Positions 16,679 to 34,455 of a stretch of 35,074 bases of DNA are shown here, one piece after another; within the stretch, counting starts at the first letter, position 1, and each line of letters begins with the position of its first letter. The notes under the pieces are model-generated. The model saw only the letters and a program-made list of their open reading frames with translations. It had not been told where the DNA came from and made no database searches. The stretch comes from Chthoniobacteraceae bacterium (GTDB taxonomy: Bacteria > Verrucomicrobiota > Verrucomicrobiia > Chthoniobacterales > Chthoniobacteraceae), in contig JBBCKI010000007.1 in the NCBI GenBank assembly GCA_037190965.1, forward strand, positions 1 to 35,074, in the 5' to 3' direction. The translations under genes were made by a program, and so were the position numbers.

Positions 16679-16808
16679 ACGGCGTTTCTACCGCGTCCCG
16701 GGGCATTGGACAGCCTATTTTGAAGAGGTGGGGAGTGCGAAGCCGTGGTGTGGCCCTTGGAAATCAAGAGCGACGATGCGGACCGGCACCCTGCCGGCTG
16801 GAGAAAAA

Positions 16809-16882: not shown

Positions 16883-16926
16883 ATAAAACCTGACGCCCAG
16901 CGGTTCGAACCCCGCTGAATGGGGCT

Positions 16927-16954
16927 ACTATGCCCGACTTGAACGGGGCCGCAA
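16927..16954 (-). promoter_or_regulatory. possible sigma-70 promoter for tRNA-Pro
   Basis: On the minus strand, TTGCGG-16 nt-CATAGT lies about 45 nt upstream of the tRNA. Confidence 0.3.
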
Positions 16955-17414
16955 GCAAATCCGCGAATATTATCCGGAAACCTGTCGTTTCCCCAGGAAT
17001 CAATGGTTTCGGCACCGGTGAGGGGATAAATGTTTATCCGATTTGGAGCTCCTACGGTTGAGTGAAGAACCCTCATTGGAGCTGTTCAGTTTTTCGAGGG
17101 GAAAAGACGCGGACCCTGCTGCTCGGTTTCATCGGCGACTTGGAGATCCCACTCCTGTCTAAAAACGCGATTACCGATGTCCGATATTCGTATTTAGACG
17201 GAATATGATTCAGTGTTTGATCCTTGACGGGGACCTGTTTAATCGGTGAAGAATGCGACGCTAGGTCAGGGAATTACGGAAATGGCGACCGATAAAATAC
17301 GGCAAAGTACGAATGCGGACTGATTTCAGCGGTTTTTTCAATCCTATCGAAAGGTTCAATATGCGGCAAAGACAACAGCCTCGGAAACCCTCCCGCTTTA
17401 CGCTCGATCCACGG

Positions 17415-19856
17415 ATGCAACGACATCCATTTGAAGGGCCTCGCTTATTGCTTCTGGCAGCGACCATGCTGACGGGAATCTCAGTAACGGGCTCCCGGGC
17501 CGCCGACCTCGTTGCCACCGGTAACCTCGATATTGGCGGAAATGCCGATATCCGTGGCACGACCTTTACATTGGGCTCTTTTACCAACGACAACGCTCAG
17601 CCCGGCGTGATTCTGACCTATACAGATGCCGTTACCACGAATCCCCCCGAGCCGTCATTATTGAGATTCACGGCAAACCGCCCTTCGCATGAATGGGTTT
17701 GGGATCATCAAAATGAAACCCAGACTGGCACCGTGCTGACGATGAAACTCGATGCGGATCATCGACTGAGTCTTTTTTCTCCGAGTGATTCATCGACGCC
17801 TGCCATTGTGCTTGATCCGGAGCTTGGCCAAATAGAAATCAATGGAGTCCCGATTACCGAAGGCGGCGGGTTCAGTTCGCTGACAGTCGGCGCGGGAGCT
17901 TCGGCTGGGGAGTGGGCCATTGCGGCTCTTGGTTGGGATGCTGCCGCCACTGGTTGGCAGTCATTTGCGGCGGGATGGGGACCGACCGCTTCCGGCCTTG
18001 GCTCCATCGCTATGGGGGGAGAGACGACCGCTTCGGGCGAATACTCCACCGCTATGGGAGAGTACACGACCGCTTCGGGCGAATATTCCACCGCTATGGG
18101 GCGGGGTTCGACCGCTTCGGGCGAATATTCCACCGCTATGAGTAGGTCGACCGCTTCGGGCAGATATTCCACCGCAATGGGGGACAGCACCAGAGCTTCG
18201 GGCGATTCCTCTACGGCAATGGGATATGGTACATGGGCTTCGGGGGAAGCCTCCACCGCCATGGGGCAATCCACGATCGCTTCGGGCACGAACTCCACCG
18301 CTATGGGGGTGGAGACGACCGCTTCGGGCAGTTATTCCACCGCTATGGGAGCGGGGACGGTAGCTTCGGGCAATGGCTCCGCCGCTATAGGAGTGGGAGC
18401 GAGAGCTTCAGGCAATATCTCCATCGCAATGGGGAATGCGACCATCGCTTCGGGCGCGGACTCCACCGCTATGGGGGTGGGGACAACCGCATCGGGCGAT
18501 TATTCGACCTCAATGGGGAGAGGGACGACCGCTTCGGACATGGGCTCTATCGCTATGGGGGACAGTACGATCGCTTCGGGCACGAGCGCCATTGCTATGG
18601 GGGGATTTACGACCGCTTCTGGCGATTTTTCCACCGCTATGGGTTATGGGCCAAGTGCTTCGGGAGATTTCTCCACCGCTATGGGGGAGATTACGACCGC
18701 CTCGGGCGATTCCTCTACCGCAATGGGATCATGGACGTACGCCTCGGGCTATTCCTCTATCGCTATGGGGACGGAGACGTACGCCTCGGGTTATTCCTCT
18801 ATCGCTATGGGATACCGCACTGTTGCGGGAGCCTATCAGCTTGTCATAGGAAGTATGAACATCCGGCTTCCTAGCAGCAATGAAGATGTGTCGCCATTTA
18901 GGCCTGCGCTTTCCGATGCTCTATTTATTATTGGAAATGGCTGGTATGAAACCGGCACCTCGCAAGAAAAGCGCAGTAACGCATTCACTGTTAACGCAGC
19001 CGGGGATGTTATGGCGGCAGGCAACCTAACTCTCGGTTCCTTTACGAGAGATGAGCAAGGTAATACCCAATCGGCCATCGCAATTGCCTACACGGATGCC
19101 GCAGAGGCTGTCGAGAACACCCCGGCGACACCATCGCTATTGAAGTTCACAGCCAACCGTTCTTCTCATGAGTGGGTTTGGGAGCACCAGAATGAAACCC
19201 AAACCGCCGCTATTCCGACGATGGTGCTTGATGAGGATCATCGGCTCGTTCTCTTTAGCCCGAGCACACCGTCCGCTCCGGTGATCGTTCTGGATCCCGA
19301 GCTTGGCCAGATTTTGGTGAACGGTGTGGCGCTGGGGCAAGCCTCCACCTTCATTTCCGTGGGAACCGGCGCTTCAGCCAGCGAAAGCTCCATCGCTGTG
19401 GGGAGCTCCGCCAGTGCCAGCGGCACAAATTCTGCCGCATTGGGTAACAGCGTAACAGCCACCGGAAATCATGCTTTCGCGGCGGGTTCCGACACGACAG
19501 CTTCCGGTGAAGCCTCTGGCGCGTTCGGTCGCGGCACCACTGCCGCGGGCGCAAACCAACTCGTGGTTGGAAGATACAACGTCCTCACATCCGGCACGGG
19601 AGACGATCCTGAACCGTCCGATGCCCTGTTCATTGTCGGCAATGGTACATCCACGAGTGAACGCGCCAACGCCATGACCGTAAACGCCGCTGGGGATGTC
19701 GAAGCCGCTGGCAAGGTGACCGCAGGAAGCGACATCACAACCTCGGGGGTGATTGTGTCAACGGGAACCGGACAATCCCGTTTCGCGGGCGCAATCCGCA
19801 TCTTGCCGCAGGGCGACCTGTCAATGGGCGAGTTCACCAACGAGTCGACGCCATAG
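17415..19856 (+). CDS. secreted fibre/adhesin with YadA-head-like 14-aa repeats and a C-terminal QGDLSMG tag (fibre A)
   Basis: Signal peptide from MQRHPF..GSRA. About 21 ASGxxSxAMGxxTx repeats, DALFIIGNG..RSNA connector twice, internal duplication. Ends ILPQGDLSMGEFTNESTP with no beta-barrel anchor. Confidence 0.85.
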   Translation: MQRHPFEGPRLLLLAATMLTGISVTGSRAADLVATGNLDIGGNADIRGTTFTLGSFTNDNAQPGVILTYTDAVTTNPPEPSLLRFTANRPSHEWVWDHQNETQTGTVLTMKLDADHRLSLFSPSDSSTPAIVLDPELGQIEINGVPITEGGGFSSLTVGAGASAGEWAIAALGWDAAATGWQSFAAGWGPTASGLGSIAMGGETTASGEYSTAMGEYTTASGEYSTAMGRGSTASGEYSTAMSRSTASGRYSTAMGDSTRASGDSSTAMGYGTWASGEASTAMGQSTIASGTNSTAMGVETTASGSYSTAMGAGTVASGNGSAAIGVGARASGNISIAMGNATIASGADSTAMGVGTTASGDYSTSMGRGTTASDMGSIAMGDSTIASGTSAIAMGGFTTASGDFSTAMGYGPSASGDFSTAMGEITTASGDSSTAMGSWTYASGYSSIAMGTETYASGYSSIAMGYRTVAGAYQLVIGSMNIRLPSSNEDVSPFRPALSDALFIIGNGWYETGTSQEKRSNAFTVNAAGDVMAAGNLTLGSFTRDEQGNTQSAIAIAYTDAAEAVENTPATPSLLKFTANRSSHEWVWEHQNETQTAAIPTMVLDEDHRLVLFSPSTPSAPVIVLDPELGQILVNGVALGQASTFISVGTGASASESSIAVGSSASASGTNSAALGNSVTATGNHAFAAGSDTTASGEASGAFGRGTTAAGANQLVVGRYNVLTSGTGDDPEPSDALFIVGNGTSTSERANAMTVNAAGDVEAAGKVTAGSDITTSGVIVSTGTGQSRFAGAIRILPQGDLSMGEFTNESTP
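17946..18825 (+). repeat. intragenic 42-bp tandem repeat array (about 21 units)
   Basis: Recurring ACCGCTTCGGGC-N6-TCCACCGCTATGGGG-N6-ACG, in frame within fibre A. One unit is 39 bp. Confidence 0.9.
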
Positions 19857-19981
19857 TCGAGAGCGGTCTATTCCCCTGTCTCACCCTCCCCAAGAAGGAG
19901 CAGTCCCTTCCCCCTGACCATGATTGTCGCTCTCGCCCATCATCATCTGATCCATCCAACCATTCCGAAGGGGCGGTAAAT

Positions 19982-20398
19982 CTGAGGCTACTTGCTGCTG
20001 TCTCGGGGCTTCTCATTCTGCCGTTGATCGTTTTTGCCTCGGCCCCGGGCTGGTGGTCTAACTCCCAGCCGCCGGTCATCGCTCCTAACGCCACTCCGAA
20101 CGATTACGCCGCCGTAAACCAAGGGCAGGTCAAAAATATTGCCAAGGCAGCGGTGGCGGAATTTGACGCCAATCTTCCGGGCGGTGCCGGCGATGTGCTG
20201 CATGCCCTTGTAGATGGCTGGGCCACCCCACAACTCACTGGCACGGCTGCCACCAACGACTATGCAGCCATCAACCTCGGCCAACTCAAAGCCGTCGCGA
20301 CGCCATTCTACGCCCGTCTCATCGACATCGGCTACAGCGACGATTACCCATGGATCGATTCGCCCAACCAGGCAAGCGACTACCGTCCGTCTCAGTGA
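19982..20398 (+). pseudogene. truncated paralogue of the 24095-29149 carrier (N-terminal NDYAAVNQGQ domain only)
   Basis: APGWWSNSQPPVI..NDYAAVNQGQVKNIAKAAVAEF..NDYAAINLGQLK..YPW..NQASDY is highly similar to the N-terminus of 24095-29149. Similarity stops at about 20383, followed by RPSQ*. No in-frame ATG precedes the signal-like stretch, so the start is uncertain. Confidence 0.85.
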
Positions 20399-21216
20399 AT
20401 TCGGAAAAGGCCCCTCAGCGCAAATCGAGTGATATTGAGAAATGGGCATGGTGGCGAGAGATGAGCGAGAAAGACAGGTTTTTTGAATATAAGATGCCAA
20501 TTTCGTTCTACGGCCGAGTTGTAGACGATAAAGGATCGCCGGTTTCAGGTGCAAAGATGCAATGCACATGGACCGATCTAAGCAGCAATGGAACTAGCAA
20601 GCGGGACTTGGAGAGTAATGCAAATGGATTCTTCTCTCTTGAAGGAGCTACAGGCAAAGGCTTGCTCATAGCTGTAAGAAAGGAGGGCTATAAACCTTAT
20701 TTTTCGAAAAATCAATTTAGCTTTGAATATGCTATGTTTGCTGATCCGAACTATCACATTCCGGACAAAGCACATCCGGTGATCTTTGTGCTCCGGAAAA
20801 ACCGCGAAACGGAAGCACTGATTGCTCATCTCAATCAAGAGGCCGAACTCGCCCCAGGTCAGAAGAAGGCTTTTTCCATTGGTCCGGGCGACGCGGCCGT
20901 CTTGGTCGAGCGCTTGCCTAACATTGGCAACGGACCGGGCGGTTGGGCCGCCAGGGTCAGCGTGCCGGGTGGCGGATTGGTGATCTCAACCGAAGAGTTT
21001 CCTTTTGAGGCACCTGAGAGCGGCTACTCCCCAGTTGTGGAAGTGACGGATAAAACGCCGAAGCCACCAACGTGGTCCGGCGACAATGGCGCTGCCTTCT
21101 TCGTAAAGACGCCCAAAGGATATGGTCGCATCACAGTGCGCAATACACCAGGGATGTCGTGGGTCTACGTTTCGTCTTATCTCAATCCAAAACCGGGCAG
21201 CCGCAATTTGGAATAG
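20384..21216 (+). CDS. carboxypeptidase-regulatory-like (beta-sandwich) domain protein, probably 5'-truncated; candidate immunity/accessory gene
   Basis: PISFYGRVVDDKGSPVSGA..SNANGFFSL..VRKEGY motif, ending NPKPGSRNLE. No signal peptide survives. A possible GTG start at 20395 overlaps the upstream TGA. Confidence 0.65.
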
Positions 21217-21300
21217 AATTACTTATAATAACAGATCCTGCGTGTGGGGATGATCGTCGGTCACTCTCCCCTCCGTAGCTCTGCTCCTTGGAGAAGGGAT

Positions 21301-21766
21301 GGGGTCAGTCAACAAATCTCGACAGAAAAGCGGCTTCTGGGTGTAGTTGATAGGGATGCCACGTCAACCAGAATCGAGCATCCCGGAGCGCGCTATCACG
21401 TCATGCGAGGAGAGATCGAAGGGAGCCGATTTTCGAAGACGTAAAGACCGGGACGATTTTGGAAAAGCTTGGGTGGAGCGGCGGAACGCTTCGGCCGGAG
21501 GATCTATGCATGGGTGTTGATGGATAGCCATTACCATTTTCGAATCAAATTTCCGTCACAAGGGGAGAGCGCCACGCTGAGCGAGTGGCGATTGCTTGGA
21601 TGCTGAATAGGGAAACAAATCTGCCGCAAAACTTTGCCTCCATAGAGCTGTCAATGTGAATCAGCAGATAGGGCGATTTCCGAACGAAATCGGCAATCCA
21701 GCGAGAGTGGCGAATGCGGAGGGAGATCAAAATGGGTGGAACTGGTCAAGAATTGTTGACTGATCC
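21301..21766 (+). mobile_element. decayed, internally deleted RAYT element with both inverted ends
   Basis: Left end GGGGTCAGTCAACAAATCTCGACAG; right end GTCAAGAATTGTTGACTGATCC. From 21356 there are frameshifted matches to MPRQPRIE.PGA.YHVM..IYAWVLMD.HYH, and from about 21553 to the C-terminus (ERVAIAW.L..TN..NV.QQ..RF) of 30382-31440. Confidence 0.85.
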
Positions 21767-22014
21767 ATTCTCACCATTCGAGCCGATTTTTAGTTTATGA
21801 TTGCGCTATGTTTAACGGAAGGTGCCAAATATTTTACGCTTGACTGATGATTCAGTTTCAAACCAAGGTGTTATTTAATGTTCACGGAATCAAGGGAATC
21901 AACAAGCTTCAGAAACGCCAGATGGACTGACTGGTAGGGCAAGCTCGGCAATTGGAGTAAGGAAATGATCAGGATCCCCCGACCGAAGCATTCGGTCCAC
22001 CCATTTTACAGAAT

Positions 22015-24012
22015 ATGAAGCCTTCAAAGAAGAAATCTTATCTTGGTGCGGTAATAGCGACGGTGGCTCTATCGATTTCACCCGGTCTACATGGCGATGA
22101 CCTGGATGTCGTAGGAAACCTTGATGTAACTGGAAATGTCGACATCCATGGCGATTCCCTTACTCTTGGCGCATGGGATGACAATTCCGCTATGCCTGGG
22201 TTTGGGCTTTTATATGACGATGGGACGACAGGAAGTATTTTATTGCAGGCGTCCCGGTCTTCAGCGCAATGGCTGTTTCAGCATCAGGCCAGCGGCGGAG
22301 GTTGGTCGAATGCGTTCAAAATTGATGCCACGCACCGTTTGATTTTGTTCGGCGCCAGTCCCGCCAATTCCGAAAGTATCATTCTCGATCCCATCGGGAG
22401 CAGCAGCTTTGGTACTTCCGTAAATTTCCTTGGCTCGAACAATCAGATGCCCAATCAAACGCTGGCTTCGACCAGCAGCATCCTGACTGCGGGGCTCGGC
22501 GATGCCCGATATTTGAGACCTGGCGCTTTACTTTCCGGCACGTCCTCGCACACTTTTGGTGTTGCTCAGAATCCTTCATGGAACGGACAAGGCTTGACCA
22601 TTAAGGCGGGGGATGGTGCGGCAGGCGTAGCGGATAGGAGTGGAGGTAGTTTGATCCTATCCAGCGGAGCGGCTAATGGTGCTGGGTGGGGGGGATCAAT
22701 TTTACTTCAAACGGCCTCCAATCCCGCGGCATCGGGAACGTCAACCCGTTCAATGGTAACGCGGATGACCATCGATGGCCGGACTGGAAATGTCGGGATT
22801 GGCGCGGGTGCTGGCATGGGGTTCACATGGGCTAATATAGCTGGCAATCTGGATGTGTCTTATGGGGGAGCACCCGCAACTCTTGTTCTTGGTGCGGATC
22901 TTAATTTGCATACACGCTCTGATGCCACCTACAAGAAATTCACTATCGCGTGCCCTCCCTATTACAATTCCCAGCATGCAATTACCGTGATCGGGGCATC
23001 GATTTATAGCGATAGGAGTGAATTATTTATTGGTGGAGCCTCGTCGACGCAACTAGGCCCCACGGATGTGATTATTATGACGCACCTGTCGGAGACGTCA
23101 GCGAATGGCGAAGAGCGAATGCGATTTTACCGGAATGGAAGCATTACGGTCAACGGCAATCTGGTTCAGAATACCACCTTCAGAATCAAAGGAAACGTCG
23201 ACGCCAACTTATTCGTGACCAGTGGATCCAATGACAGCGTCGGGGTCGGTGTAGCCTCACCTCAGGCAAAGCTTCATGTAGGGGGTGGTCTCAAAGTGGA
23301 TGGGAGTGCTTCGATTTCTGGCGGAATTAATGTCAGTGGTTCAGCAAGTATTACCGGGCCTCTCGCAATTTCAGGCACCGGCTCTCTTAGGCTCCCGGAC
23401 GGGACTGTGCTTTCGGGCAGCAATACACTCCAGAGCGTAATCACCAGTGGAACGGCTTTGACGATCTCAGGAGCCGTCTCCGCAAGCCAGGTTACGGGTC
23501 TGTCTCCCGTTGCCACCAGCGGAAATTACACTTCGTTAACTGGCTTGCCCACAATCCCATCTAATACCAATCAGCTCGCCAATGGAGCAGGTTTCATTAC
23601 GTCAAGCGGAACTGCGGCATTCGCTCAAGCCAGCGGGACAGCCACCGCTTTGAGCGGGACCATACAGGCCATACAGGTCGCTGGCTTGTCCGGAGTAGCC
23701 ACAAGCGGCGACTACGCCTCGTTATCCGGCTTGCCGACAATCCCTACTGATACCAACCAACTCGCCAACAGTGCGGGCTACGTAACGGCTAGCGGCACAA
23801 CCAGCGGCATCACTCTTTCAGGAACGACAACCGCAACCGGCAGTATCGTCGCCACAGGAGGCGTTGTTGTAACGGGCACCGCAGTGGAGGTCACCTCAGG
23901 GACGACAACCGTGACCAAAATCGTTTCATCGGGGAGCAGTCAACTGGTTCTCATTCCCGAGCAGGGAGATCTCTCGATGGGAACCTTCACGGCAGGTCGA
24001 ATTCCCCAATAA
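22015..24012 (+). CDS. secreted fibre with phage-tail-fibre-like motifs and a C-terminal QGDLSMG tag (fibre B)
   Basis: Signal peptide and an N-module shared with fibre A. Motifs RMTIDGRTGNVGIG, ERMRF, VGVGVASPQAKLHVGG, and 2x VATSGxYxSLxGLPTIPxxTNQLANxAG. Ends LIPEQGDLSMGTFTAGRIPQ. Confidence 0.8.
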   Translation: MKPSKKKSYLGAVIATVALSISPGLHGDDLDVVGNLDVTGNVDIHGDSLTLGAWDDNSAMPGFGLLYDDGTTGSILLQASRSSAQWLFQHQASGGGWSNAFKIDATHRLILFGASPANSESIILDPIGSSSFGTSVNFLGSNNQMPNQTLASTSSILTAGLGDARYLRPGALLSGTSSHTFGVAQNPSWNGQGLTIKAGDGAAGVADRSGGSLILSSGAANGAGWGGSILLQTASNPAASGTSTRSMVTRMTIDGRTGNVGIGAGAGMGFTWANIAGNLDVSYGGAPATLVLGADLNLHTRSDATYKKFTIACPPYYNSQHAITVIGASIYSDRSELFIGGASSTQLGPTDVIIMTHLSETSANGEERMRFYRNGSITVNGNLVQNTTFRIKGNVDANLFVTSGSNDSVGVGVASPQAKLHVGGGLKVDGSASISGGINVSGSASITGPLAISGTGSLRLPDGTVLSGSNTLQSVITSGTALTISGAVSASQVTGLSPVATSGNYTSLTGLPTIPSNTNQLANGAGFITSSGTAAFAQASGTATALSGTIQAIQVAGLSGVATSGDYASLSGLPTIPTDTNQLANSAGYVTASGTTSGITLSGTTTATGSIVATGGVVVTGTAVEVTSGTTTVTKIVSSGSSQLVLIPEQGDLSMGTFTAGRIPQ

Positions 24013-24094
24013 CGGGCGAAGGATACAATTCCTCTTACCATATCCAGGGGGCGCTTGGTTCCGGTGATTTTCGCTCCCATCTCTCACTTTTATC

Positions 24095-27000
24095 ATGCAT
24101 CGACCCTCTCCTGACTCTGAAAAAGGCCTGGCAAGCCTACGGCTTTTTGTTTCTTTTCTAGGTTTGTTCAGTTTGTCTGTACTTGTCCTCGGCGCGGCTC
24201 CTGCTTGGTGGTCCACATCCAACCCTCCAGTAGTCAACGACGCAACCCCCAACGATTACGCGGCCGTTAATCAGGGGCAGGTTAAGAACATTGCCAAAGC
24301 GGCGGTGGCCGAGTTCGAACTCCGTCTCCCCGGAGGGGCAGGGGTTGAACTGCACGATTTGGTTGATGGCTGGGAAACTCCTGGCGGAGCAACCAACGAC
24401 TACGCTGCTGTCAACCTTGGACAATTGAAGGCACTGGCCAAGCCGTTTTACGACCGGCTTAAAGCGGTAGGATATGTGGCAGATTACCCGTGGGCCGATT
24501 CGACGAATCCAGCAAACGATTATGCAATGGCCAATATCGGCCAGGTTAAGAATCTCTTCGCTTTCGACTTAGCCAGTATCGATGCCATTCATGACACCGA
24601 CCAGAATGGGCTGCCTGACTGGTGGGAAAAATACTATTTTGGCACGATTGGCAGTGATCCAGAGGGTGACGAAGATGGGGACGGACTCTCCAATCTCGCG
24701 GAATTCCAAGCAAAGAGCAACCCCAAGGATTATTATAGCCAGGGTAATGCGGAGCTTTCGCCCGTGCTCTCCATCGTTGGCGGTAATTACCAGTTTGGCC
24801 TTTCGGAGGCGCTTTTGGAGAAACCACTGAGGGTCGAGGTTCGAAATGCTTCCGGGGGCAGCCTCCTCGTCAATGCTCCCGTCCGCTTTTCGGTAGGTGA
24901 AGACGACGGCATTTTCCGGCTAAGCGAAAATGGCGTGGATGCAGGCCGGGAGATTACGATCCGAACGGATGCGGAAGGCATTGCGTCAGTCTTTTATCGG
25001 CAGGGAAGCGCCCTCGGAGTTTTTAGCGCCATCACGGCCCAGGCCAAACCTACGGTTGAAGTCACCCTTCACTCCGCAACCGTGCCGGAAGATCGTCTGG
25101 TTGGTCACTGGCGTTTTGAGGAGGCAACCGGAAACCTGGCTGCCGACAGCGGCCCGTTTGGGTTCGATGCAATCTTGGTCAATCCTCAATGGTCACAACG
25201 ATACACGGGGGAAGGCGACCTCGTTTTCAGTGGGCCAGTCTCCGAAGGAGGGAATGACTCCCACGTACTGATTGAGGAGCCGACTCATCGCGCCTTCGAT
25301 TTTAACTCGGAGAGTTTTACCCTCGGCGCATGGGTGCGATATGATGAAACGGCGCTCCCCGGGCGGATCATCAGCAAAGGAAACGCCGGTTCCACCCCCG
25401 GTTATTATCTCGCCGTCTCTTCGGACGGAACTTTGGAATTCGGCATCGGCACTTCCGCGAACAGCGCGGCTGAGTCCGTTTTGGTTCGTACGGTGGAAGC
25501 CTTTGACGACAATGAATGGCACCACGTTGCCGCCGTCGTGGACCAGGCCGGAGGAACGCTCCGCGTTTACGTGAACGGCATCCCGGCAGTCCTGGAGAAG
25601 GAAACCGGCACGGGAGGATCGGTGGATGAAGAGGATGAAGGCCTCTTTTCTTTTCCTTCGCTGGAGCACCTGAACGCGGGAGCGCCAGAAGATCCGGCAA
25701 GCCCGCTTTTGTTTGCTAGTCGGGGAGGGAACGATGCCTTTTTCAAAGGCGCGCTGGATGAGGTGCGTCTGTATCGGAAGGCGTTAAGCCAGGAAGAGGT
25801 GGGCGAGCTTTACCGGAGCGAATCCCCGCTCACGGCCAAAAACGCCACGCTCAACATCGAGGAAGACACCCTTGGCGTCCTGCTCCTTCCAGTGGAAGGC
25901 GGCGGCTCAACGCCCGCGCTCTATTCCATCGTGACCCCGCCGCAAAATGGCACCCTCGTTCTTGAGGGGCAAACGGCCAATTATTACCCCAATGCTCACT
26001 ACAACGGAAGCGACAGTTTCCGGTTCAAAGTCACCAAGGGTGCGAGGGAAGCAGAGGCGAACGTGACCATTACCGTCACCCCCATTGATGATCCCCCGCT
26101 GGTCAGCGTCGGCGGCGGGCGGAGCGTCCTCCTCTCCGGCACCTTGAATCTTACCGCCGTAGTGACTGACATTGACACCTCGCCCGAGAACATCCGCATT
26201 CAGTGGATGAAGGTCTCTGGCCCCGGCGAGGTTACGTTTGGGACACCGAAGGAAAATACCACCACCGCCACCTTCAGCGCAGCGGGCATGTATCTTCTGC
26301 GCGCAAGCGCCTATGATGGCACCTCCACCCGAAGCGATTCGCTCGTCGTCACCGTCCAGGAGGGAGAGGAAGGCGATGGTCCCACGGTATCCCTGGAATC
26401 GCCCGCCAATGATGTCGGGTTTGATTTCCAAACGCCCATTCTTCTCCAAGCCAGCGCGCTTGCAAGCGGAACGAGGAATACGATCGAAAAAGTTGAATTT
26501 TACGAGGGATCTCGAAAGATCGGTGAGGCCACCGCCGTTGACATCGGCAGCGGCTTTTATCAGATCCACTGGACTCCGTCTCGGATCGGCGCGTATGCGA
26601 TCAGCGCCCTGGCCGTGGAGAGCACCGGGCAAAGCCAGTTTTCGGCGGCACGCACGTTAAGGGTGACGCAACAGGGGTGGTTCAGCGCGGGAGGAACTCC
26701 CGCCGGTAACGAAGGGTACAGCGGCAGCGGCGGTAGCGGCGGCATTTCGGAGGGTTCCGGAACCGGCCCCGGCGGCGGCCACGGCCCCGGAGGTGGAGGC
26801 GGTGGAGGGGGAAACAGCGCGGGCGGCGGAGGCGATGGCTTCGGTAATCCCAATGGGACTGATCCAAACTCGATCGACAGCGACGGCGATGGTTTGAGCG
26901 ACGCCGAAGAAGCCGAGCTTGGGACCGATCCGCTGATTAAGGATACCGACGGAGACGGTTATACAGACCTTGTCGATGGTTGGCCGAGGGATCCTGATCT

Positions 27001-29149
27001 TTATCCTCCGCGTCTGCCCAATCCCCATTACTTGGTGGTACCGCTTGCGAGTCTTCATTCTGACAATGCAACATGTTATTACGGTCAAATGAACGAGCAT
27101 TTTCAGTTTGTACGGACTACCGAGCAGGGATGGTATTGGGACGCTGCTGATACGAATCCTCCAGTGTGGGTTCCCTTGGATAGCATCGATGAGCACAAAA
27201 CGATCAATAACAGAGGAGATGTAACTGGGCATATGCTCATAGATCATTTCTCCCCTTATCCAGGGTACGTAGATCAGGCCGCAGCCACTTGGAGTGCCTC
27301 AAGTGGGACGACAATGATCGACACTGTATTGGAAAAGCCGTATCCAGAAGGTTATCGAAGTACTTCCGCTTTTGCGATAAATGATGATGGAGTTGCTGTT
27401 GTAGCGGATTTTAGAGATGGGAATCCTAAATACTTTGTTTGGAGCGCAGGCGGCAAGGTGTTGCTCCCCAATAACTTTGAGCCATGGGCTATAAATAACG
27501 GTGGGGTTGTTATCGGAAACGGACTATGGGACGGTGGAGTGCTGCACGGTGTCGGAGATGGATTTTTTTGGGGCATTAGCAATTCAGTTGATTATCCAGT
27601 TGCGATCAGTAATTATTTAATATGTTCTATTTGGACTAGAGATCTCATTTCAGGGTGGTCATCGAAACCTTTGCTTGTGCGTGACCGACTCAATCGGCGC
27701 GACGTGCTTGGCTTCGGATCTGCTATCAACGATAGATGTGAAATTGCTGGCGAATTTGGTCCAGGCACTAGTTTTGATGTTATTCGAAATGGAGAAAGGT
27801 TCACATTGGGTAATTTGGGTGATGGATGGAACGTTAGCTGGGTGTACAATATAAACAATCAGGGGGTTATTTTTGGGGAAGCCATCAAGAATGGAAGCCA
27901 AAAGGAAGAGCAAGTATTACTCTTGCCGGTTGAGTTAAAGGATATCAAGAAAGTCGCCGATCTCGACGACGACGTTTATATCGAAGACATCGGGCCTAAG
28001 AAGCCCGGAGAATCCGAGAATGCTTATATTCAACGCCCTTTAAGTAATCGACAAATCGCCTGGATTGAACCACACGGCGCGGTTAACGGCACCGATCCAG
28101 AAATGCCCCATTTGGTGGCTAAGCTCTCAGGACCGGCAAAGCTGAAAGCGCGGTGGAAACTGGAAGTGGAATACAAACGGGGCAACGGCTACCGAGACTA
28201 TTACGTCAATGACTTTACGCAATTCGAGGATACGGTAAGGATCCCAGCTAACGGTGACTACACTGCGGAGATGAATGCTGATCAGGAGTGGCGGATTTTC
28301 GAGACGACGGACTGGATAGACGAAATTGCTCAGCGGGGCTTTTTCGGTGGTACGGCTAAACTTTATGTTTGGCTTCCAAGTCAAGGAGTGGCACCTATAG
28401 AGCCATTTATGACTTTCCGTATCGGCGGTAAAAATCCTGACCAAACGAAGGCCAAGACGTTCATCAACAGCGAGGCAGGAAGCGCATTCTGGTACGCCTA
28501 TGCCATCGCGAAGCATGAGACGTTTGGCCGCGTCAGGGAAAACGGGGTGGTCCGATTCTACAACCAGTTTTATACCGACTACAAGAGTTCCAAGATTGGT
28601 GACGCCGCAATTGATATGGGTTGGGCAGCTTACGCCAAGGCATGGCCGTTATATAACCTTGACCGGGACAAATATGAAAGCGGTCCAAAAAAAGGCCAGC
28701 GATACCAGAACGGTCCCGGTGGATATGGGATGTACCAGGTAACCCTAGGACCAAAGCTTCCGAATGACGCCATTCCTCAAGGAGGAGAAGGCTTTATAAC
28801 ACGCGGTCAAATTTGGAATTGGCAAGATAACGCTCGCCGTGCTATCGAGGAACTGCAAGGAAAGGCGTCTACAGCTCAATCGCTTCATAATGGACTAACA
28901 TCCACCTATCCTAATTCTGGAGCCATCCCCAGCTATAAGCACTTCTCTGGATTGGAAGCCATTGTGATCACTTACTATAACGGAATGGGCGGCGGACAGA
29001 TTCGCCGTGTTGCAGTAAATGGATATAGGACAAGACCCAGGAGTTGCTGGGCTCCCTTCGCCGGAGGTTGGGAGTTTCTACATAATAGATATGTAGATAC
29101 TGGCGCCAAGACAGGATATGTTCATGCTGTGGATAAGCACGTTGAATAA
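24095..29149 (+). CDS. large secreted multidomain protein, putative polymorphic toxin with a lysozyme/transglycosylase-like C-terminus
   Basis: Signal peptide; 3x NDYAxxNxGQ(V/L)K; DxDxDG Ca-binding repeats; LamG (LVGHWRFEE..WHHVAAV..FKGALDEVRLY); cadherin/PKD/Ig-like domains; Gly-rich linker; IN(N/D)xG propeller-like repeats; tip motifs AIAKHET, GYGMYQVT, YYNG. Confidence 0.8.
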   Translation: MHRPSPDSEKGLASLRLFVSFLGLFSLSVLVLGAAPAWWSTSNPPVVNDATPNDYAAVNQGQVKNIAKAAVAEFELRLPGGAGVELHDLVDGWETPGGATNDYAAVNLGQLKALAKPFYDRLKAVGYVADYPWADSTNPANDYAMANIGQVKNLFAFDLASIDAIHDTDQNGLPDWWEKYYFGTIGSDPEGDEDGDGLSNLAEFQAKSNPKDYYSQGNAELSPVLSIVGGNYQFGLSEALLEKPLRVEVRNASGGSLLVNAPVRFSVGEDDGIFRLSENGVDAGREITIRTDAEGIASVFYRQGSALGVFSAITAQAKPTVEVTLHSATVPEDRLVGHWRFEEATGNLAADSGPFGFDAILVNPQWSQRYTGEGDLVFSGPVSEGGNDSHVLIEEPTHRAFDFNSESFTLGAWVRYDETALPGRIISKGNAGSTPGYYLAVSSDGTLEFGIGTSANSAAESVLVRTVEAFDDNEWHHVAAVVDQAGGTLRVYVNGIPAVLEKETGTGGSVDEEDEGLFSFPSLEHLNAGAPEDPASPLLFASRGGNDAFFKGALDEVRLYRKALSQEEVGELYRSESPLTAKNATLNIEEDTLGVLLLPVEGGGSTPALYSIVTPPQNGTLVLEGQTANYYPNAHYNGSDSFRFKVTKGAREAEANVTITVTPIDDPPLVSVGGGRSVLLSGTLNLTAVVTDIDTSPENIRIQWMKVSGPGEVTFGTPKENTTTATFSAAGMYLLRASAYDGTSTRSDSLVVTVQEGEEGDGPTVSLESPANDVGFDFQTPILLQASALASGTRNTIEKVEFYEGSRKIGEATAVDIGSGFYQIHWTPSRIGAYAISALAVESTGQSQFSAARTLRVTQQGWFSAGGTPAGNEGYSGSGGSGGISEGSGTGPGGGHGPGGGGGGGGNSAGGGGDGFGNPNGTDPNSIDSDGDGLSDAEEAELGTDPLIKDTDGDGYTDLVDGWPRDPDLYPPRLPNPHYLVVPLASLHSDNATCYYGQMNEHFQFVRTTEQGWYWDAADTNPPVWVPLDSIDEHKTINNRGDVTGHMLIDHFSPYPGYVDQAAATWSASSGTTMIDTVLEKPYPEGYRSTSAFAINDDGVAVVADFRDGNPKYFVWSAGGKVLLPNNFEPWAINNGGVVIGNGLWDGGVLHGVGDGFFWGISNSVDYPVAISNYLICSIWTRDLISGWSSKPLLVRDRLNRRDVLGFGSAINDRCEIAGEFGPGTSFDVIRNGERFTLGNLGDGWNVSWVYNINNQGVIFGEAIKNGSQKEEQVLLLPVELKDIKKVADLDDDVYIEDIGPKKPGESENAYIQRPLSNRQIAWIEPHGAVNGTDPEMPHLVAKLSGPAKLKARWKLEVEYKRGNGYRDYYVNDFTQFEDTVRIPANGDYTAEMNADQEWRIFETTDWIDEIAQRGFFGGTAKLYVWLPSQGVAPIEPFMTFRIGGKNPDQTKAKTFINSEAGSAFWYAYAIAKHETFGRVRENGVVRFYNQFYTDYKSSKIGDAAIDMGWAAYAKAWPLYNLDRDKYESGPKKGQRYQNGPGGYGMYQVTLGPKLPNDAIPQGGEGFITRGQIWNWQDNARRAIEELQGKASTAQSLHNGLTSTYPNSGAIPSYKHFSGLEAIVITYYNGMGGGQIRRVAVNGYRTRPRSCWAPFAGGWEFLHNRYVDTGAKTGYVHAVDKHVE

Positions 29150-29153
29150 AATT

Positions 29154-29717
29154 ATGAAATTGATGCCATTGGTCATATATTTTCTTTCCGTAAGCATGGT
29201 GTTTGCGGATGTCCTCAATCCGGTATCTGATCTGAAGAATAGATTGGGGCTTGCTGCCTCGAATATCGTATATAAATGGAGTGCAGACCTAGACGGAGAT
29301 GGGCATTCTGAAGTGTTCCTCTGCCTAAAAGAGTCTTATCAGGAAGACGTTCGAGATAGACAAGTGCCATCTTGGGATGTTTATTTTTCTGCTGGAGGCG
29401 GGAGCTATTCTCGACCGGAAGGTATTGAGGATGGAAATCCAAAGGGTATTGGATATGGCTTCCCCAAAATCGATGCCGATCAAGTGTTTGTCGGGCAAAT
29501 CTCCCAGCTTAACAAGCATGGCATCGTGACGATCCAAACTGATACTAGTCGGGATGGGAGATCGGTGGCTCGCATCTATGCCTATACGCGTGATGGAAAT
29601 AACCTCAAAGAAACCACCCTTGCTGAATATAATCCCGACCAGGGCAACGCGATTTATGACCAATATCTGGCGGACAATGTGCGAACTAAGGTTGCACTTC
29701 AAGAAATTGCGCCTTGA
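29154..29717 (+). CDS. small exported protein, putative cognate immunity protein
   Basis: Starts 4 bp after the upstream stop. Signal peptide MKLMPLVIYFLSVSMVFA, a DLDGDG motif, and low GC like the toxin tip. Confidence 0.65.
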   Translation: MKLMPLVIYFLSVSMVFADVLNPVSDLKNRLGLAASNIVYKWSADLDGDGHSEVFLCLKESYQEDVRDRQVPSWDVYFSAGGGSYSRPEGIEDGNPKGIGYGFPKIDADQVFVGQISQLNKHGIVTIQTDTSRDGRSVARIYAYTRDGNNLKETTLAEYNPDQGNAIYDQYLADNVRTKVALQEIAP

Positions 29718-29734
29718 AGAGGCCAAGCAGGGGC

Positions 29735-29861
29735 GGGGTCAGTCGACAAATTTTGACAGAAGGGCGGATGCTGGGGTGCTGGAAATGGGGGTCATGAAAT
29801 GGGTGAAATGGGGGTCAGGCGACATATCTGGGAAATGGGGGTCAGGCGACATATCTTGACA
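29735..29861 (+). repeat. orphan RAYT left end followed by the stuttered left end of a second RAYT element
   Basis: 29735 GGGGTCAGTCGACAAATTTTGACAGAAGGGCGG resembles 21301. GAAATGGG restarts at 29782, 29796, 29805 and 29832. Confidence 0.8.
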
Positions 29862-29885
29862 GGTGTGAATGAGTAAGATCTGAGA

Positions 29886-30240
29886 ATGGCACGCAGCATT
29901 CGGATCGAGTATCCTGGCGCCTTTTACCATGTAATGGCGCGGGGGAACCGCCGGGAAAGTATCTTTTTTGACGATGAAGATCGGCGCTTTTTCCTTGGAA
30001 CGCTTGCCGAAGCGTGCGGGATGACGGGATGGCGAATTCATGCGTGGGTGTTGATGGGCAATCATTATCATTTGTTAGTGGAGACGCCGGAATCGAATTT
30101 GGTGACCGGCATGCAGTGGCTGCAGAATACCTATACGAGGCGTTTCAATACCAGGCATCGGCTTTGGGGGCGGCTCTTTGGAGACTGCTACAAGGCGGTG
30201 CCGGTCGAGGAGGGTGGTTACTATTACGAATCGTTGCTCC
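29886..30240 (+). pseudogene. truncated REP-associated tyrosine transposase (RAYT, Y1/HUH)
   Basis: MARSIRIEYPGAFYHVMARGN and HUH motif NHYHL are present. It breaks at ..YESLL, just before the catalytic DYIHLNP. The rest of the ORF to 30374 is translated repeat DNA. Confidence 0.9.
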
Positions 30241-30242
30241 AA

Positions 30243-30367
30243 CAAAAAAAGGGGTCAACAAAAAAGGGGTCCAAAAAAGGGGTCTGTCAACAAATATTGA
30301 CAGAAAGGCAGCCGGTAAGCAAAAAAGGGGTCTGTCAACAAATATTGACAGAAAGGCAGCCGGTAAG
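30243..30367 (+). repeat. stuttered left end of the RAYT element, including an exact 48-bp tandem duplication
   Basis: C(A)6-7GGGGTC occurs at 30243, 30259, 30272 and 30320. 30272-30319 is identical to 30320-30367. Confidence 0.92.
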
Positions 30368-31448
30368 TAAGTAGGATTGAGATGCCGAGACAACCACGAA
30401 TCGAATATCCCGGAGCCTGCTACCATGTGATGGCGAGGGGGGACCGAAGAGAGCCTATTTTTGAGGACGCGAAGGACCGGGAAAGATTTATTGAGACGAT
30501 GGGTGAAGCGGCGGAGCGTTCAGGGTGGAAGATTTATGCCTGGGTATTGATGGATAATCATTACCATTGGGCGATCGAGACGCCGGAGGCCAACTTGGCC
30601 GCAGGGATGAAATGGTTTCAAAACACCTATACCCGTCGAATCAACAGCCGGCATGGAAAATGGGGTCATCTTTTCGGAGGGCGCTACAAGGCGATTTCGG
30701 TTCAGAACGAAAAAAATTCGGGAAGAGGAGGGGGCGAATATCTATGCGCACTCCTTGATTATATCCATCTCAATCCCGTGCGCGCAGGCTTGGTTAACAG
30801 CAAAAATGGGTTGGGTTTATTGGAATATCCCTGGAGTAGTTTAAGCCAAGGCTATGCGGTGGCAGAAAGAGACCGGGAGTTGTGGATGGCGGTTAAGGAG
30901 GGGTTGGCTCTTTTTGGCTTCGAGGATCGGGCGAAAGATCGACGGCATTTTATCGAAAGACTGGAGGATCGGGCAGAGAAAGAGGCTTCTCAGGCGGGTG
31001 CGCTCCCTTTGCCTGGCCAAGGGCGCCAGAGCACATTGGAACGCGGATGGTATTGGGGGAATGAAGAATTTCGAGAGAAGCTGATATCGTTATGCAAGAC
31101 GAACTCCGCCTCCAACCGAAACTATCGGAGCAGCCCCATTGGAAAGGAGCAGGAGCGAAGAACAGCGGAGGAATGGATCGAAGTCGGAAAAGCCCATTTT
31201 AGATTGGATCTTCCATCTGAAGGGCGTCAGCACCACCGCGAACGCGTTGCGATTGCCTGGGCGCTGCATCGGAGGACAAACCAGGCGCAAAAATGGATTG
31301 CGGAAAAGTTGGGCCTTCACAGCGCAGCCAATGTGAGTCAGCAGGTAAGACGGTTTCAACTTGAGACAGATGAATCCACCAAGGTTGGAACATTTAACAA
31401 GGCCGTTTCAAAATGGATCTCATATGTCAAAAATTGTTGACAGACCCC
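30327..31448 (+). mobile_element. RAYT element bounded by inverted repeats
   Basis: Left GGGGTCTGTCAACAAATATTGACA; right TGTCAAAAATTGTTGACAGACCCC (reverse complement GGGGTCTGTCAACAATTTTTGACA). Each contains a TGTCAA/TTGACA hairpin. Confidence 0.85.
30382..31440 (+). CDS. REP-associated tyrosine transposase (RAYT, IS200-like Y1/HUH) with C-terminal HTH-like extension
   Basis: YHVMARG, HUH motif NHYHW, GHLFGGRYKA, catalytic DYIHLNPVRAG, YPWSS. Confidence 0.93.
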   Translation: MPRQPRIEYPGACYHVMARGDRREPIFEDAKDRERFIETMGEAAERSGWKIYAWVLMDNHYHWAIETPEANLAAGMKWFQNTYTRRINSRHGKWGHLFGGRYKAISVQNEKNSGRGGGEYLCALLDYIHLNPVRAGLVNSKNGLGLLEYPWSSLSQGYAVAERDRELWMAVKEGLALFGFEDRAKDRRHFIERLEDRAEKEASQAGALPLPGQGRQSTLERGWYWGNEEFREKLISLCKTNSASNRNYRSSPIGKEQERRTAEEWIEVGKAHFRLDLPSEGRQHHRERVAIAWALHRRTNQAQKWIAEKLGLHSAANVSQQVRRFQLETDESTKVGTFNKAVSKWISYVKNC

Positions 31449-31455
31449 TTTTCTT

Positions 31456-34455
31456 CTTGATACCGATGGAAGTGGTACTATCAACAGCGACGATCGTCGA
31501 ACAAAGACGATTCGAAGCGTCGTTTCGGGGCCGTTAATCCGCACCGTAACCCAGCAAGGGGGAGATTCGGGCTACATTACAGTCAGCACCATTGATGCGA
31601 GCCCGAACGGTCGATACCAGAAGGTAACCCAGCACGGGCTTGAGACCGTCTCACAGACCACCTATGAGAGCAACGGGGATAGCACCCAGGTGACGACGCA
31701 TCCCGATGGCTTGACCAGCACCACCGAATATGAGAACGGACGCCCCGTTACAAGCGAACGTAAAGCCAACGGAGGCGCAGTCGTCGCGTCGACGTCTTAC
31801 GAGTATGATCCACACGGGCGGCTTTGGAAACAGACTGACGGCCGAGTAGGTACGCAGACCATTTACACCTACAACGACGCCGACCAAACCACCTCCGTCA
31901 ATGCAGGAGGCATGGTCACCAGCTACACCCACAATGACCTCGGGCAGGTCATTACCGAAACCCTGCCAGGAAGTGGCCGTACCATCATCCGCACCTACCT
32001 GCCAACAGGAGAGGCGCTCACTGAAGAAGGCAGCGCCACCTACCCGATCACCTATACCTACGATCCACAAGGCCGTCGTCGCACAATGGTCACCTCCAGC
32101 GGCACCACAACGTGGAACTACAGTAGCACGCGAGGTTGGCTCACCAGCAAAGCCGACGCCCAGAGCGAAGCGACTTCTTACACCTACACCTCCGCAGGTC
32201 GCCTGAGCACCCGAACATGGGCCAGGGGCGTTGTGACCACCTACGGCTATAATGGAGCCGGTGAACTCAACTCGGTTAGTTACTCCGACGGTACCCCGGG
32301 TGTCACTTTTATCCACGACAGCCAGGGACGCCCCGTTCAAATCACCGATGCCAGCGGCACCCGAACGCTCAGCTACAACAGCGTCGGTCAACTCGAAGGC
32401 GAAAGTATCAGTGGCGGAATCCTCAACGGCGTCAGCCTCAGCGCCACCTACGACGGCCTTTTGCGGCGCAGCAGCTTCACTGCTGCCCGCAACTCTGCAA
32501 CCCTTGCGAGCAGCGCCCTCACCTATGATGGTGCATCCCGCCTCGCAACCGTCAGTTCAGGCGACCAGACCGCCGCCTACAATTACCTTGCGGGCTCAAG
32601 CCTCGTGAGCCAGATTGCCTTCAAACAAAGCGGCACCCCGGCAATGATCACGACCAAGAGCTACGACGGCCTCAATCGCCTGAGTTCGATCAGTTCCGCC
32701 CCTGCGGTGGGTGATCCCGTGTCGTACGCTTACCGGTATAACGCCGCCGGTCAACGAGATCAGATCACGCTGGCGAATGGGGATACCTGGAACTACGGCT
32801 ATAATGACCGCGGGGAGGTGACTTCCGGAAGTAAAAAGCAGGGAGGAATAACAAATCTGCTCGGTTATCAATTCGGCTATGACTTCGACGACCTTGGCAA
32901 CCGCACGAGCGCCGTCACCAACGGGCGTACGTCCACCTACAGTACGAATAGCCTCAATCAGTATACTAGCCGCACGGTTCCCAGCTACGCAGACGTAATC
33001 GGCAAAGCCAAGCCAACAACCGCAGTGACGGTCAACTCGTTGGCCGCCACCCGACAGGGTGAGGAGTATCATAAAGAGCTGAGCGTCGACAACAGCGCCG
33101 CCCCGGTTTATCTCTCGACGTCGGTCAAAGGGACCCTAGGTAGCGACACCGCTGAGGTAAATGGAAAGCTCTTTATTCCGAAGACGCCGGAAGCCTTTGC
33201 CTATGACAAGGACGGTAATCTGCTTAGCGATGGCCGTTGGACCTACGAATGGGACGGCGAAAACCGCCTCATCAGGATGGCAACTCAAGCGAGCGCCGTA
33301 ACTGCTGGGACTCCTAAGCAGAGGTTGACCTTCGCCTACGACCAACAGGGGCGCCGGATCAGTAAGAAGGTGGAGGATTGGAAGGGGAGCCGCTATCAGG
33401 AGCGGTTTACCATGCTGTTCCTTTACGATGGTTGGAATTTGGCTGCCGAAGTGCTGTCTACAGGGCCGAAGATCCGCTCGTACATGTGGGGTAGCGATCT
33501 AAGTGGTGGGACTGCTGCTGGTGGAGTAGGAGGATTGCTTTTTGTCGGACAGTATCCCGAGGGCAAAGTCTACTCAGCAGGTTATGATGGCAACGGAAAT
33601 ATCATAGGATTTTTTGATATGGAAGCAAGTGGCGACGTCGCCGCCACGTCTGAGTACGGACCCTTTGGAGAGGTCTTACAAAGGTGCGGTCGATATGGGA
33701 ATGTCAATCCATTCGGATGGTCAACGAAGCAAGCAGATTCTGAAACTGGCCTTTATTGCTATGGGTTTCGATATTATGATCAAATGAGGGCTCGTTGGAT
33801 AAGCCGAGATCCCGCGGAAGAGCAAGGCGGAGCTAATCTTTACGGCTTTCTATCGAACGACTCGCTGAATAATGTTGATTATTTGGGGCTTCGATTGGTT
33901 TGGAGTGGTACATTTGTTCACCCTGCCGGCGGGCTTTCGAATAGGGCATTTGCAGAAAATGTCGCTAGGGAGGTCACACGTATCTTCAGACAAATAGGTA
34001 TTTCTTTTGGATATGGCATACATGAGGTTCCTGATGTTATCAAAAACTCTTTCTGGCTCGACTATCAAATGAGATTCCTCTCAGGAAGCGATGGTGAGAG
34101 GGAATTGCAGTGGTTGAATCGAAATTTAGGATTTACTCGGCCAATTCTAATTGTAGAGAAGGGTATGGGGCGGTCAGGCGGCGTAGGTTACCACGGTCTT
34201 GGGGCAGTGGTTCAATATTATGCAGATCCCGTGGTAACTGCTCGACTGGTTGCGCACGAGTACTTTCACGTCAACACGGGGTTTAGGCATGGTAATTCGC
34301 GCTTTCCTGGCTGGGATACACCTGGCTTGCTAACACATCAACCAATGTCGGTTTCTGGCTATCATTCCCCCGATAAAGAAAGAATTCATTGTTCTGTCGA
34401 AAAATGGATTAAAAAAAATGGAGGAACGCCTGATCCGAAATATGTTGTCAAATGA
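31456..34455 (+). CDS. 5'-truncated RHS/YD-repeat toxin with a C-terminal HExxH metallopeptidase-like domain
   Basis: YD repeats (YDPHGR, YDPQGR, YDKDGN); core end YGFRYY..W.SRDPAEEQGGANLYGF..VDYLGL; tip HEYFHVNTGFRH. The frame is open with RHS-like sequence back to the RAYT right end, and the first in-frame start is GTG 31690. Confidence 0.9.
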   Translation, partial: LDTDGSGTINSDDRRTKTIRSVVSGPLIRTVTQQGGDSGYITVSTIDASPNGRYQKVTQHGLETVSQTTYESNGDSTQVTTHPDGLTSTTEYENGRPVTSERKANGGAVVASTSYEYDPHGRLWKQTDGRVGTQTIYTYNDADQTTSVNAGGMVTSYTHNDLGQVITETLPGSGRTIIRTYLPTGEALTEEGSATYPITYTYDPQGRRRTMVTSSGTTTWNYSSTRGWLTSKADAQSEATSYTYTSAGRLSTRTWARGVVTTYGYNGAGELNSVSYSDGTPGVTFIHDSQGRPVQITDASGTRTLSYNSVGQLEGESISGGILNGVSLSATYDGLLRRSSFTAARNSATLASSALTYDGASRLATVSSGDQTAAYNYLAGSSLVSQIAFKQSGTPAMITTKSYDGLNRLSSISSAPAVGDPVSYAYRYNAAGQRDQITLANGDTWNYGYNDRGEVTSGSKKQGGITNLLGYQFGYDFDDLGNRTSAVTNGRTSTYSTNSLNQYTSRTVPSYADVIGKAKPTTAVTVNSLAATRQGEEYHKELSVDNSAAPVYLSTSVKGTLGSDTAEVNGKLFIPKTPEAFAYDKDGNLLSDGRWTYEWDGENRLIRMATQASAVTAGTPKQRLTFAYDQQGRRISKKVEDWKGSRYQERFTMLFLYDGWNLAAEVLSTGPKIRSYMWGSDLSGGTAAGGVGGLLFVGQYPEGKVYSAGYDGNGNIIGFFDMEASGDVAATSEYGPFGEVLQRCGRYGNVNPFGWSTKQADSETGLYCYGFRYYDQMRARWISRDPAEEQGGANLYGFLSNDSLNNVDYLGLRLVWSGTFVHPAGGLSNRAFAENVAREVTRIFRQIGISFGYGIHEVPDVIKNSFWLDYQMRFLSGSDGERELQWLNRNLGFTRPILIVEKGMGRSGGVGYHGLGAVVQYYADPVVTARLVAHEYFHVNTGFRHGNSRFPGWDTPGLLTHQPMSVSGYHSPDKERIHCSVEKWIKKNGGTPDPKYVVK

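Follow-up and report, generated by a model that had tools for sequence, protein, structure and literature searches.

The stretch of DNA analysed here, called the window below, is the first 35,074 nucleotides of contig JBBCKI010000007.1 from a Chthoniobacteraceae bacterium of the phylum Verrucomicrobiota (assembly GCA_037190965.1). Its main subject is an open reading frame (ORF) on the forward strand, 24095..29149, which was taken from the ORF list and encodes a protein of 1684 residues. Near its start this protein has a domain of about 135 residues with three similar motifs, here called the module, and directly upstream lies the gene of an exported fibre (22015..24012, forward strand) with a short conserved C-terminal tail. 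Together the two genes are referred to as the cassette.

According to Pfam and NCBIfam scans, the order of parts in the 1684-residue protein is leader, triple-motif module, TSP3-like segment, Laminin_G_3, Big_9, a PKD-like domain, Big_7, a Gly-rich linker and a C-terminal part of about 700 residues, for which neither a low-threshold scan nor a PDB sequence search gave a family match. The leader (24095..24199, forward), read from the translation, contains the hydrophobic stretch LRLFVSFLGLFSLSVLVLGAA and is probably a Sec signal peptide. Homologues have leaders of the same type, which in the family alignment precede A-x-x-P-x-W-W; in the window protein an APAWW motif stands between leader and motif 1. 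Behind the module follows the Asp-rich TSP3-like segment GDEDGDGLSNLAEF (24668..24730, forward; Pfam TSP3_bac, E 2e-4). TSP3_bac was matched in 22 of 50 family members, and such a segment is common behind the module in homologues.

Three repeats and their family

The module covers residues ~36-170 (24200..24604, forward), as delimited by homologue search, profile comparison, structure models and fold matches. An earlier reading of the window from its letters and ORF translations, here called the sequence-only reading, had pointed to three neck-like motifs in one chain. They are present in frame on the forward strand: NDYAAVNQGQVK at 24251..24286 (residue 53), NDYAAVNLGQLK at 24395..24430 (residue 101) and NDYAMANIGQVK at 24515..24550 (residue 141). 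When the three segments were taken from an alignment of 50 members and compared profile to profile with hhalign, they aligned to each other at 98.1, 97.0 and 97.7% probability. The three motifs are thus the cores of three homologous internal repeats, each consisting of W-x8-[ND]DYAxxNxGQ[LV]K followed by a helix, with three such units per module.

A family search with residues 30-170 against 1.84 billion representative proteins, clustered at 50% identity, gave 2394 clusters at E<=1e-3, of which 1737 reach E<=1e-10 and 201 reach E<=1e-30. Among the 150 best-scoring of these 2394 clusters, the pattern NxGQ[LVIAMF][KR] occurs three times in 128 proteins, twice in 22 and more often in none, with a typical spacing of 48 and 40 residues. 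Repeat number therefore does not vary freely among homologues, which is what the idea of a threefold dock in the sequence-only reading had depended on. In the module alignment the Trp residues are invariant, as are G, Q and K within the motifs. That the three motifs are a product of chance or of low-complexity repetition has a negligible probability: the motifs and their spacing are kept in hundreds of clusters, residues within the motifs are invariant, and the structure models are confident. Family search, motif counts and hhalign together refute it. No model in Pfam or NCBIfam covers the module region, and the source annotation of ten clusters reads "hypothetical protein" or gives names derived from the cargo.

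In all but three (P0058, P0087 and P0115) of the same 150 clusters, whose proteins are 124-2286 residues long, the match is N-terminal. P0087 (residues 821-952) and P0115 (residues 362-487) have the module behind other domains, so that its position is not always N-terminal. Both sequences break off with the module, where the contig probably ends, and P0115 has by eye a subtilisin-like region ahead of it. The parts that follow the module are highly varied. Among 41 long homologues they include RCC1 propellers, Ig-like, fn3, LamG and NIDO domains, TSP3 repeats and DUF900 hydrolases; seven of these proteins end in a C-terminal DUF900, and 11 have no recognisable domain behind the module. A paralogue on another contig of the same genome (C5) is at least 3997 residues long and has repeats that look YD/RHS-like by eye.

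The 79 module loci collected from reference genomes carry labels of Verrucomicrobiota (Chthoniobacterales, Opitutales, Verrucomicrobiales and others), Kiritimatiellae and Lentisphaerota/Victivallales; one of them, a contig of 2.5 kb, is labelled Sphingobacterium. Of 401 evenly sampled genomes of the phylum, with seven candidates scored in each, 40 have a full module. This count takes in rows with a best E<=1e-15, as weaker rows match the TSP3-like part only.

Predicted fold and comparable known domains

Two AlphaFold2 models of the module were made. The first covers residues 30-216 of the window protein with a 50-sequence alignment and reaches a mean predicted local distance difference test (pLDDT) of 86.9 and a predicted template modelling score (pTM) of 0.77. 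The second is of a family member from Lentisphaerota, for which 97 modules from genomic loci were aligned separately (pLDDT 88.5, pTM 0.84). In the first model there are helices at 31-48, 79-95 and 119-126 (numbering starts at residue 30) and a beta-bridge at each motif, the helix at motif 1 beginning within the motif. The second repeats this pattern, with one beta-bridge per motif and a helix that starts inside it. The helix-like segments that the sequence-only reading had placed behind each motif are thus predicted as helices in both models.

SLH trimers consist of three tandem repeats in a single chain, arranged with near-threefold symmetry. Fold searches with both models rank SLH triple domains first, at middling scores; examples of such domains are those of Bacillus anthracis Sap (3PYW, 6BT4) and Paenibacillus alvei SpaA (6CWC). 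The module may have the same pseudo-threefold spindle of three repeats with a parallel three-helix core. Since the top match is itself built of three tandem repeats in one chain, a single-chain pseudo-trimer is the best-supported fold. The module likely folds as a single-chain pseudo-threefold domain, as the sequence-only reading had proposed, and its three motifs build a conserved domain that is probably threefold-symmetric; we infer the threefold packing from the predicted models and these middling scores. Foldseek found no match for the module at E<=1e-3 in the PDB and none in a viral library, and PDB sequence and profile searches with the module gave nothing significant. An ESM Atlas search, with a best score of 0.78 that serves as a lead only, included one SLH-labelled cluster among its matches.

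The fold matches bring in the main rival explanation, in which the module is an envelope anchor like the SLH and CWB2 triples. It would hold the cargo protein at the cell surface through a glycan or some other envelope component bound in its three grooves, and the fibre would be no more than co-expressed with it or would anchor itself by its own tail. That SLH triples are the best matches of the two models argues for such an anchor, and so does the variety of exported proteins headed by the module (RCC1, Ig-like, LamG, NIDO and DUF900), as anchor modules do the same. Against it stand the middling scores and the lack of any sequence relation: Pfam SLH (PF00395) matches 0 of 45 members at E<=0.5 and is outside the 25 families listed in the member scan, the source genome has no SLH domain, and the SLH triples named above have no sequence similarity to the module. 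According to PMC6081394, TRAE and GIIxG are SLH motifs. Both are lacking in the module consensus, which has [ND]DYAxxNxGQ[LV]K and Trp loops in their place. The module repeats are also shorter than those of SLH, being 48 and 40 residues apart, its hosts are diderm bacteria of the Planctomycetes-Verrucomicrobia-Chlamydiae (PVC) group, and linkage to fibre genes is a feature of the module and not of SLH. The CWB2 triple domain of Clostridioides difficile cell-wall proteins is described in the same paper as a pseudo-trimer of three tandem repeats with a parallel three-helix core, which anchors surface proteins. By this description alone the module may be likened to it in its three-repeat layout; the fold of the repeat differs, and CWB2 is not among the fold matches listed. 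Taken by itself, the envelope anchor is unlikely, with a real chance left to it. It is compatible with docking of the fibre on the module, and both can be true.

A second group of proteins that has to be considered is the trimeric autotransporter adhesins, in which a DAVNxxQL connector has been described (PMC7247746). The sequence-only reading had compared the three motifs with this neck, and at the level of the motif the likeness is real but short and below threshold. Pfam YadA_stalk (PF05662), which holds the DAVNxxQL core, gives weak matches in 13 of 50 members, at motif 1, 2 or 3 depending on the protein. They fall on positions 14-24 (up to 39) of the 43-position profile, and their best E is 3e-4. 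All stay under the cut-off of 28.4 bits, the highest score being 21.5 bits, and the module of the window protein itself has no match at E<=1. The core is similar (AVNxGQLK in the module), with one additional residue (DYAAVN as against DAVN), and is placed right at the start of a helix, and in both models the module is predicted to have such a helix-starting connector. One of the partner fibres also bears YadA-head repeats. What did not hold is membership in the autotransporter family. YadA_anchor (PF03895) was found neither in the module protein nor in either fibre nor elsewhere in the 97%-complete genome, with a positive control in E. coli. The layout of type Vc proteins, in which three identical chains contribute one neck each, differs from that of the module, which has three motifs in one chain. 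The cassette is further without a long coiled-coil stalk and a beta-barrel anchor, and its head-bearing fibre is a separate protein. The Foldseek comparison with the YadA neck that the sequence-only reading had suggested turned up no autotransporter chain among the fold matches listed for the module.

It could still be that the module is derived from an autotransporter neck and stalk, with three neck-coiled-coil segments fused into one chain and the cassette being a split autotransporter adhesin. The 13 YadA_stalk matches, which may fall at any of the three motifs, are more than chance would give, a SadA construct appeared at E 0.53 (not significant) in a PDB profile search, and YadA_head repeats are present on one fibre of the window. 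The matched span is only about 11 residues, however, with scores as given above, the PDB profile searches held no significant autotransporter match, there is no anchor in cassette or genome, and a short beta-to-alpha connector can arise by convergence. Such descent appears very unlikely. A related idea, that the neck is split and the fibre tail supplies its first half, was rejected when 0 of 32 fibre tails matched YadA_stalk at E<=10.

Fibre genes, their tails and a proposed docking of the two proteins

There are two fibre genes in the window, both on the forward strand. Fibre 1 (17313..19856) has 847 residues and ends in the tail ...RILPQGDLSMGEFTNESTP, with GDLSMG at 19812. It matches YadA_head (PF05658) at E 8.5e-58, above the cut-off, in 10 repeat stretches. 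Fibre 2 (22015..24012), next to the module gene, has 665 residues with a leader, an N-terminal domain of GNLDVxGN type, a Gly/Ser/Thr-rich shaft and a C-terminal tail, QLVLIPEQGDLSMGTFTAGRIPQ (23941..24009), which was located with a tail pattern scan and the consensus of 80 fibre-module pairs. No Pfam family matches it, and a PDB sequence search gave nothing significant. The sequence-only reading had ascribed a QGDLSMG tail to the neighbouring fibre, and the product of 22015..24012 indeed terminates in ...IPEQGDLSMGTFTAGRIPQ. In the 80 pairs the tail consensus is about 20 residues long, G-x-[LVI]-R-[IV]-x-P-Q-G-D-[LI]-S-M-G-E-F-T-x-G-P, where G and M are invariant, D is found in 75 of 80 and F or Y in 77 of 80.

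The fibre bodies all have leaders and are otherwise diverse, the tail being their sole common part. Collagen repeats (PF01391) were matched in 5 of 32 fibre C-terminal segments (best E 3.1e-7) and in neither fibre of the window, and further body types have tail-fibre-like GIGTxxPxxKLxV segments and several kinds of N-terminal domain. The collagen-repeat fibres (in loci L012, L013, L014, L019, L020, L030, L039, L072, L073, L082 and others) share a distinct N-terminal domain starting VEALLLQDTYVDNG, and most of their tails belong to the GDLAMG or GDLSMG type, with AAVWP just before. Collagen and YadA-head repeats form trimers. As these are trimer-forming types, the partner fibres are presumably trimers too, judging from their repeats.

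The connection between tail and module is seen in the order of genes. A six-frame scan of the genome found GD[LIV]SMG three times, in each case 8-9 residues ahead of the stop of a fibre-like ORF, and in all three cases the ORF directly behind is a module ORF: 17313..19856 is followed by 20024, 22015..24012 by 24095, and the third pair is on contig C5. From the 79 module loci, 65 could be scored with the strict tail pattern, which occurs in the adjacent upstream ORF of 25. Tails also come as variants, GDLAMG, GDIPMG and GGLSMG, and a relaxed pattern, composed after these variants had been viewed, is present in the adjacent upstream ORF of 51 of 64 close loci, plus three in which an extension of 42-67 residues follows the tail. 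As a control, the relaxed pattern matched 2 of 773 other ORFs, both of them fibres adjoining another fibre or a module.

The search can also be started from the tail. A DNA pattern run on 400 other genomes of the phylum gave five true tail contexts, three of them with a module gene directly 3'. In the other two a module gene also follows. At L091 (G278:C80, oriented nucleotides 571-3025) an ORF stands between the fibre and module genes; it has a GASGG motif and several hydrophobic stretches and appears rhomboid-like by eye, and the fibre itself carries two successive tail motifs, GDLSMGGY... and ...DLSMGSYTRQ. At L093 (G062:C59, oriented nucleotides 1-2178) the tail motif lies inside the chain, with a LamG-like domain of about 200 residues fused behind it, and the module gene is about 600 nucleotides downstream. 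Counting the genome of the window and the tail-first search together, a module gene lies downstream of 8 of 8 independently found tails, and in six it is directly adjacent. When the search is started from the module, a tail-bearing ORF is directly upstream in 21 of 50 matches of the even phylum sample, a set that left out matches at contig edges, broken matches and two from an earlier set (both with fibres). Fibres thus come with modules, and modules are often without fibres. The link between the module and a QGDLSMG-tailed fibre, which the sequence-only reading had drawn from one locus, is by these four counts a conserved gene pair. Translation of fibre and module as one product by stop-codon readthrough is ruled out in the window, the two ORFs being in different frames.

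Tail and module genes stand side by side, in the same order, across three phyla, and the simplest reading is that the two meet; the gene order suggests that the fibre plugs into the module. An arrangement that would fit is the following. In each repeat, a Trp-containing loop would lead into the short beta-to-alpha connector [ND]DYAxxNxGQ[LV]K and from there into the start of a helix. The three helices would most likely run parallel and form a core of roughly threefold symmetry, in the layout of the SLH triple. The module sits N-terminally on large exported proteins with highly varied cargo, and in this genome and most close relatives the gene of an exported fibre stands upstream of it in the cassette. 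The fibre trimer would dock by its C-terminal end, where the three tails are, on the pseudo-threefold face or in the grooves of the module, giving one fibre trimer per cargo protein, and the variable N-terminal end of the fibre would point outward as the binding end. For the explanation as a whole, that is three-repeat domain, fibre cassette and direct docking of tail on module, we consider the chances to be even. The sequence-only reading, in which a 3:1 complex is proposed, is plausible on this point and supported in part overall. With no YadA_anchor in a 97%-complete genome, the YadA-head fibre needs some other attachment.

Several observations weigh against this docking. A fibre gene directly upstream is missing for 29 of 50 module genes in the phylum sample and in 10 of the 64 close loci. 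The module must therefore do more than dock fibres and also has a role independent of them; the 29 are at the same time in favour of the envelope anchor discussed above, an explanation which leaves the order of tail and then module in 8 of 8 cases unaccounted for. The tail motif occurs in 0 of 150 module homologues, so that no fusion protein of fibre and module was found. Covariation between tail and module is not decisive, with a top z of 5.1 among 1696 column pairs, and the identity of tails tracks that of modules with r=0.52, a level expected from common descent alone. The tail could instead be a trimerisation nucleus of the fibre.

This last point belongs to a further rival explanation, in which module and tail never touch. 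Both would be tags for a third component, such as an export or assembly machine (compare the trafficking domains of polymorphic toxins), or the tail would only set the register of the fibre trimer, as a foldon-like nucleus. Short C-terminal trimerisation nuclei occur in phage fibres. Some of the cargo is polymorphic-toxin-like, the C5 paralogue being YD/RHS-like by eye and DUF900 being C-terminal in 7 of 41 long homologues, and there is a third conserved gene, CarboxypepD_reg-like, behind the module gene in 7 of 79 loci and upstream in one. A conserved machine gene was not seen, however: beyond fibres, module proteins and this third gene, no cluster is present in more than 5 of the 79 loci. 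A pure trimerisation tag need not track module genes, yet the tail was found solely beside them. This rival, in either form, is in our judgement quite unlikely.

Coming back to direct docking, its wider form would be a system of the PVC group for targeting, or an adhesin split over two proteins. Many kinds of trimeric fibre (YadA-head, collagen-like or tail-fibre-like) would have given up a membrane anchor and would plug three tails into a pseudo-threefold, neck-like socket made by a single chain at the N-terminus of a separately encoded cargo protein, at a ratio of 3:1, with the fibre providing recognition and the socket protein the payload (an enzyme, an RHS-type or hydrolase toxin, or adhesin domains). 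This is offered tentatively, as a possible reading with the balance somewhat against it. The underlying principles have parallels, both in pseudo-trimers built of tandem repeats and in fibres attached by a short conserved end. The adenovirus fibre on its penton base and the collagen-like BclA on the exosporium basal layer are attached via a short conserved terminal tail. Like the cassette, these would combine a trimeric fibre and a variable distal part with a short conserved terminal segment for attachment to a base; the analogy is one of principle, with no relation in sequence or fold.

Searches of the published literature on the motif, the neck, fibres and toxins of Verrucomicrobia and the pseudo-trimer found no account of module or cassette, and several passages of PMC3482391 that name Verrucomicrobia describe neither. 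By these searches the cassette of module and fibre is new and undescribed. The module is abundant, with 2394 clusters and presence in 40 of 401 genomes, and has no Pfam or NCBIfam model and, in the source annotation of ten clusters, no name of its own. Its pairing with tail-tagged fibres leads to a testable hypothesis on how fibres are mounted in diderms without autotransporter anchors, and the cassette may also account for the targeting of large secreted proteins, some of them toxin-like. If docking is true, tail and socket would be a natural coupling pair of 3:1, and a trimeric interface would have been rebuilt inside a single chain. If the reading as a split adhesin is also true, it would be a modular and undescribed route by which secreted proteins are armed with exchangeable fibres.

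Other genes in the window

The module ORF behind fibre 1 is a truncated paralogue (20024..20398, forward). Its leader is followed by motif 1 (20102) and motif 2 (20258), and the ORF stops where motif 3 is expected to start (...SDYRPSQ*). Over residues 4-146 it is 65% identical to the window's module protein. Overlapping it is an ORF for a CarboxypepD_reg-like protein (20350..21216, forward), identified by Pfam and by homologues in the module loci, which is the window's copy of the third gene mentioned above. In eight of the 79 loci (seven downstream of the module gene, one upstream) the homologue has a hydrophobic stretch near its N-terminus, and the window ORF is without it. The stop after motif 2 and the overlapping ORF that lacks the hydrophobic stretch suggest that this first cassette (20024-21216) has decayed, the cargo having been lost in a deletion and the remaining parts joined.

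Downstream of the main module gene, and overlapping it by 32 bases, is a small ORF for an exported protein (29118..29717, forward; 199 residues) with a leader and no family match. Its arrangement with the 1684-residue protein is reminiscent of a pair of toxin and immunity protein, a purely speculative reading; neither the C-terminal ~700 residues nor 29118..29717 has a family match. A scan of 16600-30000 for promoters and terminators found sites no more numerous than in shuffled sequence. The sequencing runs listed for the source are soil-metagenome DNA from a single study, with none of RNA.

Further along are two adjacent ORFs similar to Y1 (REP-associated tyrosine) transposases, 29886..30374 and 30382..31440, followed at 31690..34455 by a gene for a 921-residue protein that has RHS repeats and an RHS-associated core domain. 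The reverse strand upstream of the fibre cassettes encodes a giant TPR-repeat protein of 1954 residues (10140-16004). The region 1148-7781 holds genes for glucose-6-phosphate isomerase, a histidine-kinase fragment, a sigma-54-dependent response regulator and GlnD, which are unrelated to the module.

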